Virus record (IMG/VR): IMGVR_UViG_3300030376_005973 | Location: 1 to 24,073 of that record | DNA: 24,073 nt | Direction: 5' to 3' (one strand) | Source of the DNA: a virus | Taxonomy: Duplodnaviria; Caudoviricetes | Shown: one piece after another, positions 4,605 to 23,843 of the stretch | How positions within the stretch are numbered: position 1 is the stretch's first letter | Layout: each line of letters starts with the position of its first letter | The notes under the pieces: generated by a model | The model's database searches: none | Told to the model about the DNA's origin: nothing | The model's input: the letters and a program-made list of their open reading frames with translations, nothing else | Made by a program: the position numbers and the translations under genes

Positions 4605-5567
4605 CTAACTATCTGTATGTATTGAGGCAGGTAAAGCTGTTGCCTTCATTATTATTGGTGGATAAAATCTATCAGGGTCAGTATCTTGCCTTCCACCATA
4701 TCTTATTCTAGTAGTAGTTCCACTAGTTGCAAGTGCAAGCCAATATGTATATGAGCTTCCTGCTGTCAATCCACCTGCTACAAATTTTATTGTATTGTAT
4801 CTATCATCTGTTTCATCTGCTAAATCTCCACCATAAACATAAGCCAAATCCCAAGTAGTTGAGCCATCTCCAAGTTCAGCAGTTGCTTGGTTAAATGTAG
4901 CATTGTCAGATAATGCAGAAGTTATTGATTTATTAGAGTGAAATGAATCCCTGAAATAATTAACCCCAATCTCAACATTTCCACTTGGTGGTGCCACAAA
5001 AGTAACTTTAGCATCAGCATCTACGACTGCAAGACTTGTTGTTAGATTAACATATTGTGCAGTTGTAGGGGATAAATGAGTATAGCCTAAAATCATACCT
5101 GCATAGGCACTATTAGTTGCACTAAACTCTGTTCCTGCTTTACTAGCAACAAACCTTCCTAATCCTGAATCCTGTGTTAATGTCCCCCCAACATCTAATG
5201 TAAGATTGCCTAAATTAATTGGAGCTATTGTTAAACCTGCCCCATCTATTTGAATATTTCCTATAACAATATGATTGCTTCCATCCTTATCTATAAACTG
5301 TATTACTCCATTTTCAGGCTCTAAGTCTATCCCTGCTGTAGCTATTATCTCGAGGTCGCTAGAACTTCTTGAAATTATTGTATTATTATTTAAATGTAGT
5401 TGATTATTGTCTCCAATCGTTACTTCTCCATCAACTGTATTAGAAGATAAGTTTGAGCCTTTTATTTTTCCTTCATTGTTAATAAAAATACCTGTAGCAT
5501 TATCATCAACATAGATTTGCTGAAAGTCTTTACTTAGCGGCCCTTTTATTGTTAATTGGTTGCTCAT
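4605..5567 (-). CDS. fibre-like structural protein (320 aa)
   Basis: Beta-repeat-like N-terminal half and a C-terminal beta-sandwich-like segment (GLTAGSSYTYW); ATGA overlap with the upstream gene. Confidence 0.55.
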   Translation of the reverse strand: MSNQLTIKGPLSKDFQQIYVDDNATGIFINNEGKIKGSNLSSNTVDGEVTIGDNNQLHLNNNTIISRSSSDLEIIATAGIDLEPENGVIQFIDKDGSNHIVIGNIQIDGAGLTIAPINLGNLTLDVGGTLTQDSGLGRFVASKAGTEFSATNSAYAGMILGYTHLSPTTAQYVNLTTSLAVVDADAKVTFVAPPSGNVEIGVNYFRDSFHSNKSITSALSDNATFNQATAELGDGSTTWDLAYVYGGDLADETDDRYNTIKFVAGGLTAGSSYTYWLALATSGTTTRIRYGGRQDTDPDRFYPPIIMKATALPASIHTDS

Positions 5568-8030: not shown

Positions 8031-8435
8031 CTAAAGAGATTTTATTATTTCGGATAGTTCTTTAGCTCTGTTGGGAGTCTGCACAGCCCACTTGGAATCA
8101 AGCATCTCTTCCGATGCTTTTTCCCACTCTGCTTCTTGTAGGTACGCTATGGTTTTCTTAAATTTGCAAAATCCTCTAAAGCCTAATTGGTATGCCATAT
8201 TAAGCATAACATTTCTAACTTCTATAGGACTTGTCTTAAACCAATCAAATGTATTTTCAAAGCTTTTTTCTAATACTTCTAATTTTTCAGTAAGGATCAA
8301 CTCACATACTTCTTCAGATAAATAAAGGTCTTTAATGGCGAAGCCCACGCCTATCGTGTCTACTCCAGCCGTACACTTATATACTTTAGGCTTATATCCT
8401 TCGTGAATCTTTAATTGTTCTATTATATCTTTCAT
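8031..8435 (-). CDS. endolysin, T4-type lysozyme (GH24)
   Basis: HEGYKPKVYKCTAGVDTIGVG gives the E-x8-(D/C)-x5-T catalytic spacing; also NMAYQLG and SKWAVQTPNRA. ATG at 8435 is preferred over GTG at 8477. Confidence 0.9.
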   Translation of the reverse strand: MKDIIEQLKIHEGYKPKVYKCTAGVDTIGVGFAIKDLYLSEEVCELILTEKLEVLEKSFENTFDWFKTSPIEVRNVMLNMAYQLGFRGFCKFKKTIAYLQEAEWEKASEEMLDSKWAVQTPNRAKELSEIIKSL

Positions 8436-8466
8436 AATGTGATACTGCTCTGTCCAGTATTCGTAT

Positions 8467-8646
8467 TTATTTTGCACTCTTTTTAGATTTTTTCTTTTTA
8501 GGTTTAGGCTTAGGCTTGTCTTTTATTTCTTCCCATCCTTTATCTTTCAACCTTTGCAATTTTTTATCAGTAAGTTTTTCATCGGCAAAACCACGAATCT
8601 CGCCTCTGTCTTTAACTCTTATACCATTGTATTTAAATTTTCTCAT
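8467..8646 (-). CDS. small Lys-rich protein after the capsid gene (59 aa)
   Basis: Manually read MRKFKYNGIRVKDRGEIRGFADEKLTDKKLQRLKDKGWEEIKDKPKPKPKKKKSKKSAK; AAGGGA SD. Confidence 0.6.
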   Translation of the reverse strand: MRKFKYNGIRVKDRGEIRGFADEKLTDKKLQRLKDKGWEEIKDKPKPKPKKKKSKKSAK

Positions 8647-8663
8647 TTCTTCCCTTATGGTTT

Positions 8664-8698
8664 AAAATATAAATGGCAGGGGGTTTCCCCCCTACCAT
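8664..8698 (-). terminator. intrinsic terminator/attenuator hairpin after the major capsid gene
   Basis: Minus strand ATGGTAGGGGG-GAAA-CCCCCTGCCAT: 11-bp stem, GNRA loop, then TTATATTTT. Confidence 0.75.
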
Positions 8699-8719
8699 AT
8701 ATTTAAGCTAACTTATTTA

Positions 8720-9781
8720 TTAAGTTTTGCTATCCGTTAATGCTATAACTCTTCTGTTACCAGCCGAGTCTGCAGTTCTGCAAGTAGCACCATACAATGC
8801 GTCTGTAGAAATTAAGTCAGACATATATGTATGCTGATATGATTGCTTAACATTTGCATCTTGAATAGCCCAATATAAAGCGCTATCGTGAATTGCAAAT
8901 CCTCTCAAGTAATCATCATCAGTAGATGCACCTGTGTCAAAACCATCCCAAGCAGTAGGAATTCCTGCTCCTGCAGCAGCAGCTACAGAACCAACATCCA
9001 TAAATACGCTATTAGATGCAATAACAGGCATACCAAGCAAGCTTCCAACAACACCTTTTCCAAGTATGTTATTATCAGAAGCAATCCCACCTAGACCTTG
9101 AGTCCAAGAGTTTCCAAAATTGCTTGTATTAGCTAATGATCCATAAGCTTTAGGCCCTAGAACGATTTTCCAACCATCTGTGCTTCCAGTTTCACCAGCA
9201 ATAATTCCCATTAAAGATGCCAAGTGAGCAGGAGTTAATGCTTCTCCAACTTCAACATTCATTGTTGCGTTAGCATTTACACCATCGCCACTACCTAAAA
9301 CTGAAGTCAGCTGAGCAACAACTGTATACATTAGATGATTATCAACTGCTTTTGCAATAGCATAACCTAATTGACCAGAATATAAGCTAAACATATCATA
9401 AGCTGCTTGAGCTTTTACTGCATCTGGTAGCCATAGAGGCGCTGCATAATGCTGATCTATAATTAGTTCAGTATCAACACCTGTATCAGTTCCACTATTA
9501 TCTTGCTCTAACACTTCTGCATTTTGTGTTACAGCTTTTACTGTTGGAACACCAATATGTGGCAATCTAATTTTATCACCACCTTGCGCTTTCGCAATTC
9601 CTGAAAGATCAGTACCACATTGCGTAAGTACTGTATTTTTATTAAAAGATTCTAATATTGCCTGTCCCCATATTTCAGGTACAAATTCAAGGGCAAGTGT
9701 GTCTGCGTTAGCTCCTAAAGTAGAGGAACTGTTAACACCGCCAATCAGCATATTAGAAGCTAGAGGGTTACTTAAACTCAT
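8720..9781 (-). CDS. major capsid protein (HK97 fold)
   Basis: FVPEIWGQAILESF, GDKIRLP, GSLLGMPVIASN and DALYG motifs. Follows the scaffold, has an AGGAG SD and is followed by a terminator. Confidence 0.85.
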   Translation of the reverse strand: MSLSNPLASNMLIGGVNSSSTLGANADTLALEFVPEIWGQAILESFNKNTVLTQCGTDLSGIAKAQGGDKIRLPHIGVPTVKAVTQNAEVLEQDNSGTDTGVDTELIIDQHYAAPLWLPDAVKAQAAYDMFSLYSGQLGYAIAKAVDNHLMYTVVAQLTSVLGSGDGVNANATMNVEVGEALTPAHLASLMGIIAGETGSTDGWKIVLGPKAYGSLANTSNFGNSWTQGLGGIASDNNILGKGVVGSLLGMPVIASNSVFMDVGSVAAAAGAGIPTAWDGFDTGASTDDDYLRGFAIHDSALYWAIQDANVKQSYQHTYMSDLISTDALYGATCRTADSAGNRRVIALTDSKT

Positions 9782-15463: not shown

Positions 15464-15493
15464 TAACTAAATAAAAAGGCGGGTAACCTTATG
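15464..15493 (+). repeat. start-associated repeat A, copy 1
   Basis: TAACTAAATAAAAAGGCGGGTAACCTTATG; differs from 15707-15735 by one A. Confidence 0.9.
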
Positions 15494-15709: not shown

Positions 15710-15735
15710 CTAAATAAAAGGCGGGTAACCTTATG
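15707..15735 (+). repeat. start-associated repeat A, copy 2
   Basis: TAACTAAATAAAAGGCGGGTAACCTTATG. Confidence 0.9.
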
Positions 15736-16581
15736 AACTTAAAAGAGTATTACAATAAAAATAATTTACTAACAATAAACCAAGACCCAAAAACAAGCAA
15801 AGGAACCAAAGAAGGATATATAACGGCCATCATGTATTTAGCGCCTGCTTCTTTAAGTGGTCGTAATGTATGTAGCTTTTCAACTTCTGGATGTCGTGCG
15901 GTCTGTTTAAATATGGCTGGGCGGGGTCAATTTAACTACATACAACAAAGCAGATTAAATAGAACTAGATTCTTTTTAAATGAAAGAACTGCTTTCTTAA
16001 ATAACTTAGTATTAAGAGTTTCAAACTTTGTAGCCTATGCAGATAAAAAAAACTTAATTCCAGTTGTTAGATTGAATGGAACCTCAGATATTCCATTTGA
16101 GAATATCAAAATTAAATTAGATGACCTTTTACAATATAAAAGATTAAATAATGCAAAGCATAAAAAAGTATTTACGGCTTTTATACAGAAAAACGGAATT
16201 AAAAAAGGTCTTAACATCATGGATATTTTTAAACATATTCAATTTTATGATTACACAAAATATCCGCTAGAAAGACGCCCCAAAGCTATTAAACAGTTTA
16301 ACTATGATTTAACCTTTTCTAGAGCTGAAAGTAACGAAGCAGAAGCTTTGGAATATATGCGAACTTATAGCGGGCGGGCGTCTTTTGTTTTTTCGGATGC
16401 ACTCCCAAAAACTTACAAAGGATTCAAAGTAATTGATGCGGATGAAACCGACTTGCGCTTTTTAGAACCTAAAAATGTAATTACGGGTCTGATTTTCAAA
16501 GGCTCTAAAAAGACTATGAAAGAAGGAATTAATAGTGGTTTTGTAATTGAGAATAATTCACGGGATCAGATTGCAAAATAA
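15733..16581 (+). CDS. GP88-like (radical-SAM-like, Cys-cluster) phage protein
   Basis: LAPA..NVC-x6-C-x3-C..GRG, VRLNGTSDI, FYDYTK, YDLTFS and DADETDLRFL motifs, recognised by eye. Confidence 0.7.
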   Translation: MNLKEYYNKNNLLTINQDPKTSKGTKEGYITAIMYLAPASLSGRNVCSFSTSGCRAVCLNMAGRGQFNYIQQSRLNRTRFFLNERTAFLNNLVLRVSNFVAYADKKNLIPVVRLNGTSDIPFENIKIKLDDLLQYKRLNNAKHKKVFTAFIQKNGIKKGLNIMDIFKHIQFYDYTKYPLERRPKAIKQFNYDLTFSRAESNEAEALEYMRTYSGRASFVFSDALPKTYKGFKVIDADETDLRFLEPKNVITGLIFKGSKKTMKEGINSGFVIENNSRDQIAK

Positions 16582-16652
16582 AAATTCTAATGATCTAAAT
16601 TAAAAATAAAAAAATCTCAAAGTTTCACGGGATCAGATTACAAAATAAAAAT
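16557..16652 (+). repeat. 29-nt direct repeat duplicating the 3' end of the GP88-like gene
   Basis: TTCACGGGATCAGATT(G/A)CAAAATAAAAAT at 16557-16585 and 16624-16652 (1 mismatch). Confidence 0.85.
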
Positions 16653-16674: not shown

Positions 16675-16842
16675 ATGAGTAGATTAAACATTAAAACAGC
16701 TTCATTAAATGAACTTAAAGCAAAATGCCTAGAATTAGAAGGTACTACATTTGGTCATAATATGATTGGTATTATTTGCAATGTAGTAGAAGAACGCTTC
16801 CCAGATGAAGCAGAGCAATTTATAAGTATTTACGGCAACTAA
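16675..16842 (+). CDS. hypothetical protein (55 aa)
   Basis: Manually read MSRLNIKTASLNELKAKCLELEGTTFGHNMIGIICNVVEERFPDEAEQFISIYGN; AAGGA SD. Confidence 0.65.
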   Translation: MSRLNIKTASLNELKAKCLELEGTTFGHNMIGIICNVVEERFPDEAEQFISIYGN

Positions 16843-16906
16843 TCGAAACGCCCGCTCTGGGCGTCTTGTGTAGGTTGGTAACCTTGCAACTGATGAGATT
16901 AACCAA
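16840..16906 (+). ncRNA. type II hammerhead ribozyme
   Basis: TAATC-GAAA-CGCCC/GGGCG-TC (cleavage after C16865)-stem I (TTGTG.AGGTT/AACCTTGCAA)-CTGATGA-GATTA. Stem II is TAATC/GATTA; pseudoknot TTGGT/ACCAA. Confidence 0.9.
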
Positions 16907-16926
16907 AATAAAAAAAGGGGTTGAAA

Positions 16927-17384: not shown

Positions 17385-17402
17385 TAAATAGGGGGTTATA
17401 AA

Positions 17403-17839: not shown

Positions 17840-17998
17840 ATGAAAATATTTAAAACTGATGCAGAGCTTATAAAATACCTTAGAAGTCAAGGAGATGAAA
17901 GTTATAATGACGCTAGTGACGACTTTATATTTCAAGAAGCATTTGAGCATGGTTGGGTAGAAATGTTTGAAGGTAATTATAAAATAAAGGAGAGTTAA
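17840..17998 (+). CDS. small acidic protein (52 aa)
   Basis: Manually read MKIFKTDAELIKYLRSQGDESYNDASDDFIFQEAFEHGWVEMFEGNYKIKES; AGGAG SD. Confidence 0.65.
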   Translation: MKIFKTDAELIKYLRSQGDESYNDASDDFIFQEAFEHGWVEMFEGNYKIKES

Positions 17999-18298: not shown

Positions 18299-18324
18299 AC
18301 GGGTAAACAATAGGAGTTAAAATG
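18299..18324 (+). repeat. start-associated repeat B, copy 1
   Basis: ACGGGTAAACAATAGGAGTTAAAATG; 25/26 identical to 20613-20638. Confidence 0.9.
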
Positions 18325-19950: not shown

Positions 19951-20133
19951 ATGATAGTAAACCATTTAACTAAAATTTGTGATAAATGTAAAAAAGTAAA
20001 TTGTAATCCAACTTACAATTGGTGGAATCAAAAAAATCCAAAAGAGGGCGGTTCTTATTGTTGGGATTGTTATCAAGAAAAAATAACAATAGAGAATATG
20101 CTTAATTTAGGCTTAATTAAGGAGTTAAAATGA
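19951..20133 (+). CDS. small zinc-finger protein (60 aa)
   Basis: CDKC...CWDC. Confidence 0.6.
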   Translation: MIVNHLTKICDKCKKVNCNPTYNWWNQKNPKEGGSYCWDCYQEKITIENMLNLGLIKELK

Positions 20134-20267: not shown

Positions 20268-20620
20268 AAATAGGAAAAGTAAAAAAAACAATTGATGTTT
20301 CAGCAAATGATATTGAAGAGGCATTAGTTGGAGCATTTGAAGGTGGAAGCAATTATTGGTTGCTTAAAGTAAGGGTAAAAGATGATGATTACAAGGGTGG
20401 CGAATATGCATCTGATGTGGTTGGTTTAGGTGGAGAGCTTATATTAATCACAATGGAAGGAGAAAAGCATAAATTGACACAAGCAAAGATGGTTAAAGGA
20501 TTTCAGAAATATCTTGATAATGGTGGAATGTATTTTCCATTTGATTGTGGGGGAGCAGACGGCCGGACATATGATACGATATTACAGAATGCATTATTTG
20601 GTGAGCAAGTTTACGGATAA
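20264..20620 (+). CDS. phage hypothetical protein (118 aa)
   Basis: Start at ATG 20264 (GGGGAGG SD, ATGA overlap) rather than 20210; EGGSNYW and DTILQNALFGEQVYG motifs. Confidence 0.7.
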   Translation: MKIGKVKKTIDVSANDIEEALVGAFEGGSNYWLLKVRVKDDDYKGGEYASDVVGLGGELILITMEGEKHKLTQAKMVKGFQKYLDNGGMYFPFDCGGADGRTYDTILQNALFGEQVYG

Positions 20621-20638
20621 ACAATAGGAGTTAAAATG
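20613..20638 (+). repeat. start-associated repeat B, copy 2
   Basis: ACGGATAAACAATAGGAGTTAAAATG. Confidence 0.9.
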
Positions 20639-20794: not shown

Positions 20795-20913
20795 TGATTG
20801 AATTTTTATATTTTCTGATTATGATCTTAATTGTTATTTTGATCAATTTTAGTTTAGTCTATAAAAATCAAGTTTTAATCCTTCTTTTTAAGATCCTTAA
20901 AGCTTTTAAATAA
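20794..20913 (+). CDS. possible small hydrophobic protein (39 aa)
   Basis: MIEFLYFLIMILIVILINFSLVYKNQVLILLFKILKAFK with TAATG coupling. May instead be an AT-rich non-coding tract. Confidence 0.35.
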   Translation: MIEFLYFLIMILIVILINFSLVYKNQVLILLFKILKAFK

Positions 20914-21180
20914 TACAACCTTTAGTGAGCAAAGCATAGAAGTCCCTACCCCTCAACAGAGGAGGATTTCTATGCCTAATAAAGTTACAACCTTCAGAGT
21001 CGCCTTGTGCATATTCCAGGCCATAATAAGTGACAAGGAACGGAAATTCATTTTTCATCCTTATAAATATAGATGCATCTCAAATTTCTTCAGTTTGATT
21101 GCCTATGTGCATCGAACCCCTTTTGGTATAGGCATTATAACCATTGCAGCCAAAAGATTTAAACCAAACCTGCAACGGAC
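20914..21180 (-). ncRNA. candidate structured non-coding RNA, antisense to the early region
   Basis: Directly downstream of a leftward TTGACA-18-TATATT promoter. Successive stems: CCGTTGCAG/CTGCAATGG, TGCCTAT/ATAGGCA, CCTTGT/ACAAGG and GCATAGAA/TTCTATGC. No substantial minus-strand ORF. Confidence 0.5.
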
Positions 21181-21228: not shown

Positions 21229-21258
21229 TTGACATCATTACTCTTATTCAATTATATT
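21229..21258 (+). promoter_or_regulatory. rightward sigma70-like promoter of the replication operon
   Basis: TTGACA (21229-21234)-18 nt-TATATT (21253-21258). Confidence 0.7.
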
Positions 21259-21298
21259 GATTCAAACAAATGTTATTAATTTAATACAGGAGAGTTAA

Positions 21299-21907
21299 AT
21301 GCTAGTAGATAAAATATGTAATAAATATGGTTTAGATAAAGAAGCTGATTGTTGGCCACACAAACCTTCCAGGAAATGGATTTTAACGCATGATGCTATT
21401 GAGAAAATTGCTACTATTGAAAATATTACCCTAACAGAAATTAAAGTTCTTAATACTGAAAGAGATTTTGCCAGGTTTTTAATTACTATGGAAAGACAAT
21501 GGGATGTAGTTAATAGCGATGGAAACACAGATACTAATTACAAACAGATCTCAAGCATTGGCGAAGCCGACAAGTCTAATTGTACAAGCAAATATTATGG
21601 CTGCATGGCAGAAAAAAGAGGAATTGATCGTTGTGTTTTAAAGCTTATTGAGGCCTACGAATATGGGATATCTTCAGAAGTAGAGGCAGACGATTTTAAA
21701 AAAGATGAAAAGCCTATGAGCAGCTATCAGGGAACTAGAATTGTTGAAATATTAAAGTATAAAGAAGGATATGACAAGAAGGTAGTGAAGTCAATATTTA
21801 GCAACCTTAGTCACACAGAAGCGCAGGACATTATATCGCATTTTGAAACAGGAAGAATTGATGAGGCAGTAGAATCTTTTTACAATCTTAACAAAGGAGA
21901 CAAATAA
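21299..21907 (+). CDS. putative single-strand annealing/recombination protein (Rad52/Sak-like)
   Basis: SIGEA..N..YYGCMAEKRGIDRCVLKL..ISSEVEADDFK resembles SSAP cores; first gene of the replication operon. Family assignment is tentative. Confidence 0.5.
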   Translation: MLVDKICNKYGLDKEADCWPHKPSRKWILTHDAIEKIATIENITLTEIKVLNTERDFARFLITMERQWDVVNSDGNTDTNYKQISSIGEADKSNCTSKYYGCMAEKRGIDRCVLKLIEAYEYGISSEVEADDFKKDEKPMSSYQGTRIVEILKYKEGYDKKVVKSIFSNLSHTEAQDIISHFETGRIDEAVESFYNLNKGDK

Positions 21908-22329
21908 TGAGTTCATTTAAATTTAAAGTTGGAGAGCCAAGAAAGGTTGTGCTTGCATTTGATAGTCCAAAAGAAGGGACTAATTCATACGGAGCATGGT
22001 ATTTATATGGAATTAAATCAGGCATAAATGATGATGAGGATAGTTTTTTTGCAACCCCATCTCTGCACACCATGATTCAAACACTAGGTGCTGGAGAAGG
22101 AGACGATATCACTATTGAGAAGTGTGAAGAAGGCGAGATCACTTTCTTTAAAGTTAATGGTCTTACTCTTAACGAGATGAATAGTGGTGGATCTGCAGAG
22201 AGGATAAAGGAAGCATCGCCAACACCAAGAGAGGTAGACAGACTAAAAACTATAATCAAGGAACTAGAGTCAGAACTATCTGTTTATAAAAACTCTAAGG
22301 AAGCAACTGATGCAGACATACCTTTTTAA
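21907..22329 (+). CDS. putative single-stranded DNA-binding protein
   Basis: Beta-rich OB-like N-domain; C-terminus DADIPF matches the bacterial SSB acidic tip (DDDIPF). Confidence 0.6.
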   Translation: MSSFKFKVGEPRKVVLAFDSPKEGTNSYGAWYLYGIKSGINDDEDSFFATPSLHTMIQTLGAGEGDDITIEKCEEGEITFFKVNGLTLNEMNSGGSAERIKEASPTPREVDRLKTIIKELESELSVYKNSKEATDADIPF

Positions 22330-22330
22330 T

Positions 22331-22720
22331 ATGCCTAATTTTAAAAAAGTTAGTTTTGAGGAGTTTTATAGCGCCTACCCAAAAAAGGTTGGGCGTTATA
22401 CTGCTGAAAAAAGTTTTAAAAAGCTATCTATTAAAGACAAGCATGATGCCTATAGTGGACTTATAAATTATTGCAAGTTTTGGAAAGCAAGTGAAACTAA
22501 AAAGCAGTTTATCCCTAATCCATCTACCTTTATAAATCAAAAAAGATGGGAAGATGAGATAGAAGTGCCAAAAGAAAAAGTTGTTTGGGAGCTTGATTCT
22601 ACTAACAGGTTTTATAAGGGATATTGTTCTAAATGCCGTAGTTTTGAGAGCTATACTGAAATTGAAAGAAATGGTGATTCTCGTTGCTGCAAAGCAAGAA
22701 TATTGCCAAAAAGGAAATAA
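22331..22720 (+). CDS. replication protein, replisome-organizer C-terminal-like domain plus Cys motif
   Basis: FEEFYSAYPKKVG..AEKSFKKL and FIPNPSTFINQKRWEDE; C-terminal CSKC..RCC; ATG at 22331. Confidence 0.65.
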   Translation: MPNFKKVSFEEFYSAYPKKVGRYTAEKSFKKLSIKDKHDAYSGLINYCKFWKASETKKQFIPNPSTFINQKRWEDEIEVPKEKVVWELDSTNRFYKGYCSKCRSFESYTEIERNGDSRCCKARILPKRK

Positions 22721-22907: not shown

Positions 22908-23138
22908 GTGAAAGCTGAAGAATTTAATTTAAGAAGATTTTATGTGTGCAGATACGAAGACGGAGATGTTGAATATTGCACATTGCATACTAATCAACTT
23001 GACGCTAAAAAAAGCATAACTAGATTTAAGAGAAAGTTTGGAGTTGTTGGAAGTGTCGAGTTAAAGAAGATTAGGTTTACAAAAAAAGGATTTGTAGACC
23101 TTTTTAATAAATATTGCATACAATATAGAAAAAGATAA
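22908..23138 (+). CDS. hypothetical protein (76 aa)
   Basis: GTG start with AGGAG SD. Confidence 0.6.
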   Translation: MKAEEFNLRRFYVCRYEDGDVEYCTLHTNQLDAKKSITRFKRKFGVVGSVELKKIRFTKKGFVDLFNKYCIQYRKR

Positions 23139-23145
23139 CAGGTTT

Positions 23146-23201
23146 TCGAGGGGAGGGACTTAACTCTCTTGGTTACCCGCCAATCTAATCCTTTCCCTCG
23201 A
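23146..23201 (+). ncRNA. hairpin with loop antisense to early-gene ribosome-binding regions (candidate regulatory RNA)
   Basis: 13-bp stem TCGAGGGGAGGGA/TCCTTTCCCTCGA, with two G-U pairs that form only on the plus strand. Loop CTTAACTCTCTTGGTTACCCGCCAATCTAA is complementary to repeats A and B. Confidence 0.65.
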
Positions 23202-23207
23202 TATATT

Positions 23208-23843
23208 ATGGATAAAATTAATCTTATAAATAATGATTGTATGAATGTAATACCAGAATATGAAACAAATTATTTTGATTTGGCAATAGTTGATCCTCCA
23301 TATGGTCTTCCAGAATTTAGTGAAAACCCAGAACAAGGAACAGGGGTTTTAAAAAATAGAATATTTCAAGAAATGGATAAAAGTAAGTGGGACAAAGCTC
23401 CTGATGCTTTATATTTTAAAGAATTACTTAGGGTTTCTAAAAACCAGATCATATGGGGCGGCAATTATTTTAATTTACCGCCTACAAGAGAGATTATATG
23501 CTGGGACAAAGAACAACCTTTTCCTAATTTTAGCGCTTGGGAGTTTGCTTGGACATCTTTTAATAGGCCTGCTAAAATATTTAGAATGAATAATAGAATT
23601 AAAAACAAAATACATCCAACTGAAAAGCCTGTAAAGCTTTATAAATGGTTATTGAAGCAATATGCAAAAAGTGGTCAATTAATATTAGATACGCATTTAG
23701 GGTCTGGAAATATTGCTATAGCTTGCCACGATTATAATTGCAATTTTCTTGGCATAGAAATAAACTCAGCTTATTATAAAAAAGCATCTAAGAATTATAA
23801 AGACCATAAAAATCAAGGAAATTTATTTGAAACAAGAATGTAA
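23208..23843 (+). CDS. DNA methyltransferase (N6-adenine/N4-cytosine, beta class), orphan
   Basis: DPPY catalytic motif precedes HPTEKP and the DTHLGSG SAM-binding motif; ATG at 23208. Confidence 0.9.
   Translation: MDKINLINNDCMNVIPEYETNYFDLAIVDPPYGLPEFSENPEQGTGVLKNRIFQEMDKSKWDKAPDALYFKELLRVSKNQIIWGGNYFNLPPTREIICWDKEQPFPNFSAWEFAWTSFNRPAKIFRMNNRIKNKIHPTEKPVKLYKWLLKQYAKSGQLILDTHLGSGNIAIACHDYNCNFLGIEINSAYYKKASKNYKDHKNQGNLFETRM

Follow-up and report, generated by a model that had tools for sequence, protein, structure and literature searches.

A conserved, interrupted hairpin occupies positions 23146 to 23201 on the plus strand of the 24,073-base virus record analyzed here, the whole of which is referred to as the window. 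It is a real, uncatalogued family of structured RNAs of uncultured marine phages, built from an outer stem, an internal loop, an inner stem, and an apical loop and recognized by its fold, its homologues, covariation, and a G-U strand bias. From sequence comparisons, we lean toward the view that this candidate small RNA, borne by the replication operon, serves as an antisense RNA, preventing initiation of translation at the first gene of the operon and at several early genes. Comparative support for the predicted anti-RBS pairing is good, and support for coevolution of the loop with its putative sites is weaker.

The window is a phage fragment whose left side contains the major head protein, terminase subunit, lysozyme, and neck genes. 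The plus-strand early region begins at 15491 and includes GP88, peptide deformylase, and numerous small ORFs, and the replication operon begins at 21299, with an initiator gene at 22310 and a methyltransferase gene at 23208. Relatives were drawn from IMG/VR and marine metagenome collections, with complete genomes of 33 to 40 kb. The window terminase is at most 33% identical to those of cultured phages, no match to the hairpin is present in 50,697 phage records, and a host search over genome contigs gave one weak, unrelated match only. Searches with 43 proteins from the window and 62 from six relatives, a set that covers part of the genes of each complete genome, gave no integrase, repressor, or antirepressor. 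A Sigma70_r4-domain gene is located at 8069-8983 in the early or middle region of relative L028.

Several other elements were seen alongside the hairpin. A type II hammerhead ribozyme lies among the early genes at 16841-16908 on the plus strand (28.2 bits, below the gathering score, with the core motifs present), and relative L062 has one at 668-732, also on the plus strand, above the gathering score (46.5 bits). A 29-nt direct repeat (97%) is present at 16557-16585 and 16624-16652, at the end of the GP88 gene, and L023 has a comparable short repeat ahead of an early gene. A second conserved noncoding element of about 270 nt occupies 20905-21180 on the minus strand. It is oriented away from the replication operon and has a sigma70-like promoter at 21214-21185. 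It aligns across 17 loci with 76% column identity, 32 of its 61 predicted pairs change on both sides, and a pseudoknot is possible. This element overlaps a plus-strand ORF (20972) and has no Rfam, tRNA, or tmRNA match, and parts of it are also found in more distant phages that lack the small hairpin (L141, L143, L146, and L153).

The outer stem of the hairpin has 13 bp, including two G-U pairs, and joins 23146-23158 to 23189-23201 around 30 enclosed nucleotides (23159-23188). The first-pass annotation of this sequence had proposed this stem together with an inner stem, which was reproduced at 23169-23173/23179-23183, and all of the coordinates in its observation were correct. The plus strand folds at a minimum free energy of -23.2 kcal/mol (z, -3.69), a stability equaled by none of 200 shuffled sequences, and the reverse strand folds at -19.5. 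The 5' strand of the internal loop (CTTAACTCTCTT, 23159-23170, plus strand) contains the predicted anti-RBS seed, assigned by its conserved TAACTC and by its enrichment at start sites, and seed positions 23163-23168 are predicted to be unpaired. The inner stem and apical loop (GGTTACCCGCC, 23171-23181, plus strand) provide a second putative seed in the window's lineage only, as suggested by complementarity and accessibility ranking.

Homologues were located with the upstream ORF as an anchor, the hairpin following directly after its stop codon. A syntenic hairpin was present in 52 of the 53 loci with enough sequence, duplicates included; because some contigs were retrieved more than once, the 52 correspond to 30 distinct hairpins, all of which have the four structural parts named above. 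In the alignment of 27 distinct rows, which was fitted to the covariance model, 96.2% of the cells were paired, compared with 59.5 to 72.3% in slid controls, and 11 of 15 pairs changed on both sides, a result reached by none of 500 shuffles. The compensatory stem changes that the first-pass annotation had proposed to look for are present. L025, L048, and L062 are absent from these rows because the model did not align them, as are L084, which has a different sequence at the site, and three loci with fewer than 80 nt after the stop. An alignment-free exchange of stem arms gave -13.3 kcal/mol for swapped arms and -20.0 kcal/mol for native ones. The alignment contained 25 G-U cells versus 6 A-C cells, which favors a plus-strand RNA; total energy favors the plus strand in just 17 of the 30 hairpins, the minus strand being as good or better in 13. 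Covariation and the G-U bias together indicate a conserved RNA structure on the plus strand.

No Rfam match was obtained for the hairpin in the window or 16 loci, and no second copy was found in four genomes. Model R2 detected no clear distant homologue in the distant loci, the best being L037 (20.1 bits; E, 0.25), where a larger hairpin with G-rich arms at 8291-8370 is a candidate for homology. The same model missed the divergent hairpins of L025 and L062, both of which were recovered by synteny, so calls of no detected hairpin are weak. At 1429-1520 of L084, the stem breaks off after its first bases and gives way to other structured sequence and then a new gene, resembling an insertion.

The position of the hairpin in the operon is also conserved. 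Upstream is an ORF of 76 amino acids (22908-23138, plus strand), whose stop lies 4 to 9 nt before the stem in 30 of 30 distinct homologues. Downstream, 6 nt after the stem, begins a gene for an N6/N4 DNA methyltransferase (23208-23843, plus strand) that has no SD sequence, and the gene in this place varies among relatives. An SD-less ATG is found 8 to 14 nt past the stem in 26 of 30 homologues (23202-23210 in the window), with the next ATG 8 to 32 nt past it across the homologues. Matches to a -10 element near 23073-23124, considered as a promoter for the hairpin itself, and terminator-like matches in the same interval fall within the upstream ORF and are not conserved, and a promoter of its own was rejected. 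An own -10 element was seen in 1 of 30 homologues, a T4 run follows the stem in only 5 of 30, and a terminator scan of the window did not call the hairpin. With neither promoter nor terminator of its own, we infer that the hairpin RNA derives from the operon transcript. The predicted driver of this operon is a sigma70-like promoter at 21229-21258 (plus strand), assigned by consensus match only (11 of 12).

The first operon gene (21299-21907, plus strand) likely encodes a Sak-like single-stranded DNA annealing protein, an assignment that serves as a lead only. It had no Pfam or PHROG match, and it fell in the Sak cluster at 0.89, under the tool's bar. The gene in the same slot of L027 is a PHROG Sak (5e-53) and has its C-terminal 100 amino acids in common with the window gene, at 21% identity overall. 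A PDB profile match for the window gene (E, 0.017) was discounted because the alignment contained a true Sak. The same operon contains the replication initiation protein gene (22310-22720, plus strand; phrog_270, 7e-17).

We then compared the loop with the translation starts of the window, where the first-pass annotation had described a set of plus-strand complements that were all recovered. The apical-loop complement GGCGGGTAACC is located 2 nt before ATG 15491, the first early gene (15478-15488), and 2 nt before ATG 15733, a GP88 family gene (15720-15730); these are the only perfect 11-nt plus-strand complements of the hairpin in the window. The internal-loop complement AGGAGAGTTAA lies directly before ATG 17999 (17988-17998) and again at 21288-21298, the RBS of the first replication-operon gene, forming 11 bp with one G-U pair in both places. 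A weak, G-U-dependent site, AGGGGGTTA, precedes the peptide deformylase gene (17403) at 17390-17398 and pairs with the internal loop over 9 bp, two of them G-U. Bipartite sites, with the apical complement followed by the internal-loop complement, are found before ATG 18322 (18300-18320) and, with one extra mismatch, before ATG 20636 (20614-20634); the respective matches of 18/21 and 17/21 hold with one gap, the pairs being counted by eye. Before ATG 20130, GGAGTTAA (20121-20128) is a weaker site of the same motif.

An accessibility-corrected ranking of targets, which had been proposed as a check, placed the best sites at starts. In this RNAup-like calculation with opening costs, the sites at 15720 (-15.1 kcal/mol) and 15478 (-15.0 kcal/mol) ranked first and second on the plus strand, 17989 ranked fourth, and 21287 ranked sixth, with nonstart sites in third and fifth place; the deformylase site was outside the top 14. 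Start sites thus made up the two best and four of the six best plus-strand sites and none of the best 14 minus-strand sites. Duplexes of the conserved seed in the window are short, at 9 to 11 bp, with -6 to -9 kcal/mol after opening costs. In the window alone, perfect matches of at least 9 nt occurred at 4 of 25 early starts, attained by 31 of 20,000 shuffled loops, and perfect matches at 7 nt occurred at 7 of 25, attained by 589 of 20,000; other AT-rich 30-mers of the window match early starts equally well. This single-genome statistic is modest, and the comparative data therefore bear the weight.

Across relatives, the internal-loop strand UUAACUCUC is the conserved part of the loop, and 49 of the 52 hairpin loci, counting duplicates, have TAACTC in it. 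In 17 long loci, perfect seed matches of at least 8 nt were found at 50 of 378 early/middle starts, 1 of 108 downstream starts, and 0 of 177 late starts, with matches scored in the 22 nt before each start and genes called with a simple custom caller; in this and all other comparative counts the loci are related rather than independent. Each locus has one to six genes with such a match, and these are mildly enriched as first genes after a gap (17 of 50 versus 68 of 327; P = 0.046). The start motif is asymmetric, occurs in a single orientation, and is fixed to start codons. A TTRR spacer follows GGAG at 53 of 246 early/middle GGAG starts versus 2 of 91 others (P = 3e-6), indicating that the match exceeds mere likeness to an SD sequence. 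The corresponding count is 10 of 143 in 21 loci without a detected hairpin, where a different start caller was used.

The steadiest and most conserved predicted target is the RBS of the first operon gene, where 20 of the 21 distinct loop/RBS combinations give 8 or more contiguous pairs. This RBS is preserved in L027 although the gene there, the PHROG Sak, differs at its N terminus. L002 and L011, which possess a homologue of the first gene and no detected hairpin, carry other RBSs. The earlier claim that the internal loop complements early-gene starts and the start of its own operon therefore extends to the relatives, and late genes lack the match.

Covariation of the loop with the RBS, also named as a check by the first-pass annotation, is real but thin in these sequences. 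In L025, the seed is changed to TGTCTAACTCC and the first-gene RBS to GGAGTTAGACA; the native pairing has a predicted energy of -18.9 kcal/mol versus a mean of -8.2 for foreign pairings, and across the other 16 loci the L025 seed has a score of 0. A joint change of a single base in seed and RBS is found in L013 and L058. The 5' loop strand of L062 has changed to GTCAAC and faces GTTGAC with only 6 bp unless the apical loop contributes, which is worse than with all 20 foreign seeds; for the RBS of L027, 18 of 20 foreign seeds are a better fit than the native one. A permutation of native against swapped pairs gave 8 of 20,000 overall and 1,776 of 20,000, which is not significant, when L025 and L062 were left out, so that the signal rests mostly on one lineage. 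Target substitutions showed no G-U preference (5 G versus 9 T at two U-facing positions). A repeated palindrome, possibly a protein operator, was seen at 4917, 6245, and 12903 of L025 and at 1839 and 2642 of L062; the L025 hairpin contains a half-site of it, and one copy lies directly upstream of a seed-matched RBS.

The match of the apical loop to the first two early genes held for the window and L023 and failed in other relatives, with an in-genome target in 2 of the 15 long loci that have a defined apical unit. L049, L032, and L053 have the identical apical loop and no matching site in upstream leaders of their own, L053 showing one 7-bp match just within a coding start. The CTACTCA apical loop of three complete genomes has one non-self match in each, no more than the control, and the L022/L028-type loop finds only one 7-bp site across all 17 long loci. 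Universal targeting by the apical loop was rejected, as most genomes have no targets above control. Judging from base pairing, the four common apical variants, which differ by transitions, could all pair with 5'-UGGGUAG-3' through G-U, and two rarer variants do not fit it; the apical loop may have a host RNA or a protein as its partner. On the 3' loop strand, ACCCC faces GGGGT sites in L024, L052, L028, and L032, and GGGGT starts are commoner in the 7 loci with this strand than in the 10 without it (mean, 2.4 versus 0.6; P = 0.003; loci not independent). We regard both the apical loop and this 3' strand as probable secondary seeds, each confined to particular lineages.

In the mechanism that we favor, the hairpin would be transcribed from the promoter at 21229-21258 and either released by processing or active from inside the long transcript. 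Its internal loop would then pair over the SD sequence and spacer, up to the start codon, and lower translation. As the operon transcript builds up, the loop would limit the amounts of the annealing and replication proteins by negative feedback, and early genes bearing the tag, one to six per locus, would be damped. The constrained apical loop, which has no target above control in most genomes, is evidence against this antisense-RNA reading and is unexplained by it. Also counting against it are the loss of significance in the permutation without L025 and L062, the poor fit of the L027 and L062 seeds to their own RBSs, the target substitutions without G-U preference, the shortness of the duplexes, and the plus-strand energy advantage in only 17 of 30 hairpins.

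Other explanations were weighed against the same data. The hairpin might be a cis element, serving as a stem for processing or stability or bridging the gap so that the upstream stop lies near the SD-less downstream start, with the loop match being secondary. The fixed distances to the stop (30/30) and to the SD-less ATG (26/30) and the rarity of an own -10 element (1/30) agree with such a role, but the near-invariant loop strand, the early-only start match, and the joint change in L025 go unexplained and the downstream gene varies among relatives, and we consider this unlikely; a cis role can in any case coexist with the antisense-RNA explanation. An intrinsic terminator, or a chance hairpin with an incidentally SD-like loop, is hardly credible. 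Its place directly after a stop codon, the modest single-window statistic, and the AT-rich DNA, in which 15 of 30 homologues reach 5 or more T within some stretch of 8 nt, are what such a hairpin would offer; however, a 4-T run follows in only 5 of 30, the terminator scan was negative, and the loop is a structured one of 30 nt. Covariation, the enrichment by start class, and seed conservation largely refute this reading. The start motif could instead be a protein site, whether a DNA operator or the RNA site of a translational repressor, with the hairpin as an inverted operator copy or a minus-strand RNA decoy. The target substitutions without G-U preference, the palindrome half-site in the L025 hairpin, and the 13 of 30 hairpins whose minus strand folds as well or better are all in keeping with this, and Pope et al. 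left the partners of the start-associated sequence (SAS) motifs, protein or RNA, open (PMC3203893). It is nevertheless very unlikely: the asymmetric motif keeps a single orientation and a fixed place at start codons, a DNA operator requires no covarying stem, the excess of G-U over A-C cells points to a plus-strand RNA in which the loop is antisense rather than a mimic, and no repressor was found among the scanned proteins.

Two further readings accept the pairing itself. In one, it is aimed at other phages, the resident RNA silencing tagged early genes of superinfecting relatives with the variable apical loop as the specificity determinant, much as the variable a' loop sets target specificity in C4 (PMC5320573). 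A conserved seed would match the starts of relatives like its own, and the apical loop of L049, L032, and L053 does match the two foremost early genes in both the window and L023. However, the L022/L028-type loop finds its single 7-bp site in 17 long loci, the most conserved site sits on the operon that encodes the hairpin, and the scanned proteins of the window and its relatives (43 and 62) included no integrase or repressor and hence gave no sign of a lysogenic immunity state, making this quite unlikely. In the other, pairing is activating or protective, shielding tagged leaders from nucleases or a repressor or keeping them open. The sequence evidence for pairing is blind to the sign of the effect, but the predicted duplex covers the SD sequence and spacer to the start codon, and bacterial small RNAs that pair in this way block 30S binding. 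The leaders are, moreover, AU-rich with a low opening cost, leaving little to open, and activation is very improbable.

Beyond the antisense-RNA reading itself, we tentatively raise a broader possibility, which we hold to be less probable than not: that one 55-nt RNA is the master regulator of the early-to-replication switch in a repressor-less phage. A private RBS tag would mark the promoter-proximal and other early genes, the RNA made from the replication operon would silence these genes together with the operon's own first gene, and three separate loop surfaces would be retargeted from one lineage to another. If true, this would constitute an RNA regulon, and start-associated sequences would gain an RNA partner. 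Temporal control in virulent phages is usually assigned to proteins. Few small RNAs of virulent phages have a known function (PMC4933390 and PMC8244752). The short RNA, its seed of 9 to 11 nt, and the natural variants of seed and site (L025 versus the rest) make a direct reporter test feasible without phage culture.

Among known systems, the first-pass annotation had named the C4 and P4 CI antisense RNAs as analogues. The P4 CI RNA, considered here together with C4, is a small phage RNA in a longer transcript. C4 of P1/P7 (Rfam RF01695) is likewise embedded in a longer transcript, as the hairpin would be, and in the description given in PMC5320573 its b' loop occludes the RBS while the variable a' loop binds just upstream. 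This order of an RBS seed and an upstream seed is mirrored at 18300-18320 and in L023; the RBS seed is general, and sites for the second seed are confined to the window and L023. Unlike C4, which has three stem-loops in about 77 nt (PMC5320573), the hairpin is a single interrupted one, of 47 to 63 nt from the first paired G to its partner. It also differs in having many predicted targets across the early genes, with immunity genes not found among the scanned proteins. Models of the C4 clan gave no match in the window (E up to 5) or 16 loci (E up to 1). The RNase P signature of C4 comprises a GGW 5' end and an RCCA 3' end; among the 30 homologues, 1 has the former, 1 has the latter, and 18 have U before the first G. 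By this comparison the hairpin would work like C4, but its fold, its ends, and the Rfam models place it outside the C4 family.

OppZ and CarZ represent a type of RNA from the 3' end of an operon with an intrinsic terminator. In Vibrio cholerae they are autoregulatory, operon-derived small RNAs (PMC7398697), and the hairpin resembles them in its probable derivation from an operon and in its predicted pairing with the start region of its own transcript, 20 of 21 pairs showing complementarity of 8 bp or more. In contrast to them, it lies inside the operon, lacks a terminator U-tract, holds its seed in an internal loop, is phage encoded, and matches other transcripts too, and it does not count as one of their type. 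As with sar of P22 and OOP of lambda (PMC12197685), a phage RNA would pair with phage mRNAs and, by prediction, lower expression; those RNAs are described there as antisense to one gene in temperate phages, whereas the hairpin lies apart from its putative sites and would reach many genes through short seeds. The PAK_P3 small RNAs, for which PMC4933390 reports single coding-region targets and tRNA loops, were rejected as a precedent for targeting early-gene RBSs, which that account contradicts. No precedent for a phage RNA aimed at a shared RBS tag was found in the open-access literature; motifs partly outside Rfam are described in PMC2864571 and PMC5737381, which may bear on novelty.

The closest parallel at the target side is the SAS of Cluster K mycobacteriophages (PMC3203893). 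Both are asymmetric, extended SD motifs in one orientation, a few nucleotides before the ATG of nonstructural genes only, and conserved beyond the needs of 16S pairing. The motif found here differs in sequence, visibly so from the 13-bp Cluster K consensus, belongs to another phage group, and is shorter, with fewer copies (one to six per locus at 8 nt or more). Single opposite-strand copies of SAS were noted in that study, which leaves open an RNA or protein partner; the opposite-strand copy in these phages lies within a covarying hairpin. If repression by this hairpin holds, it would answer, in at least one phage group, the question raised there of what reads an extended RBS tag.
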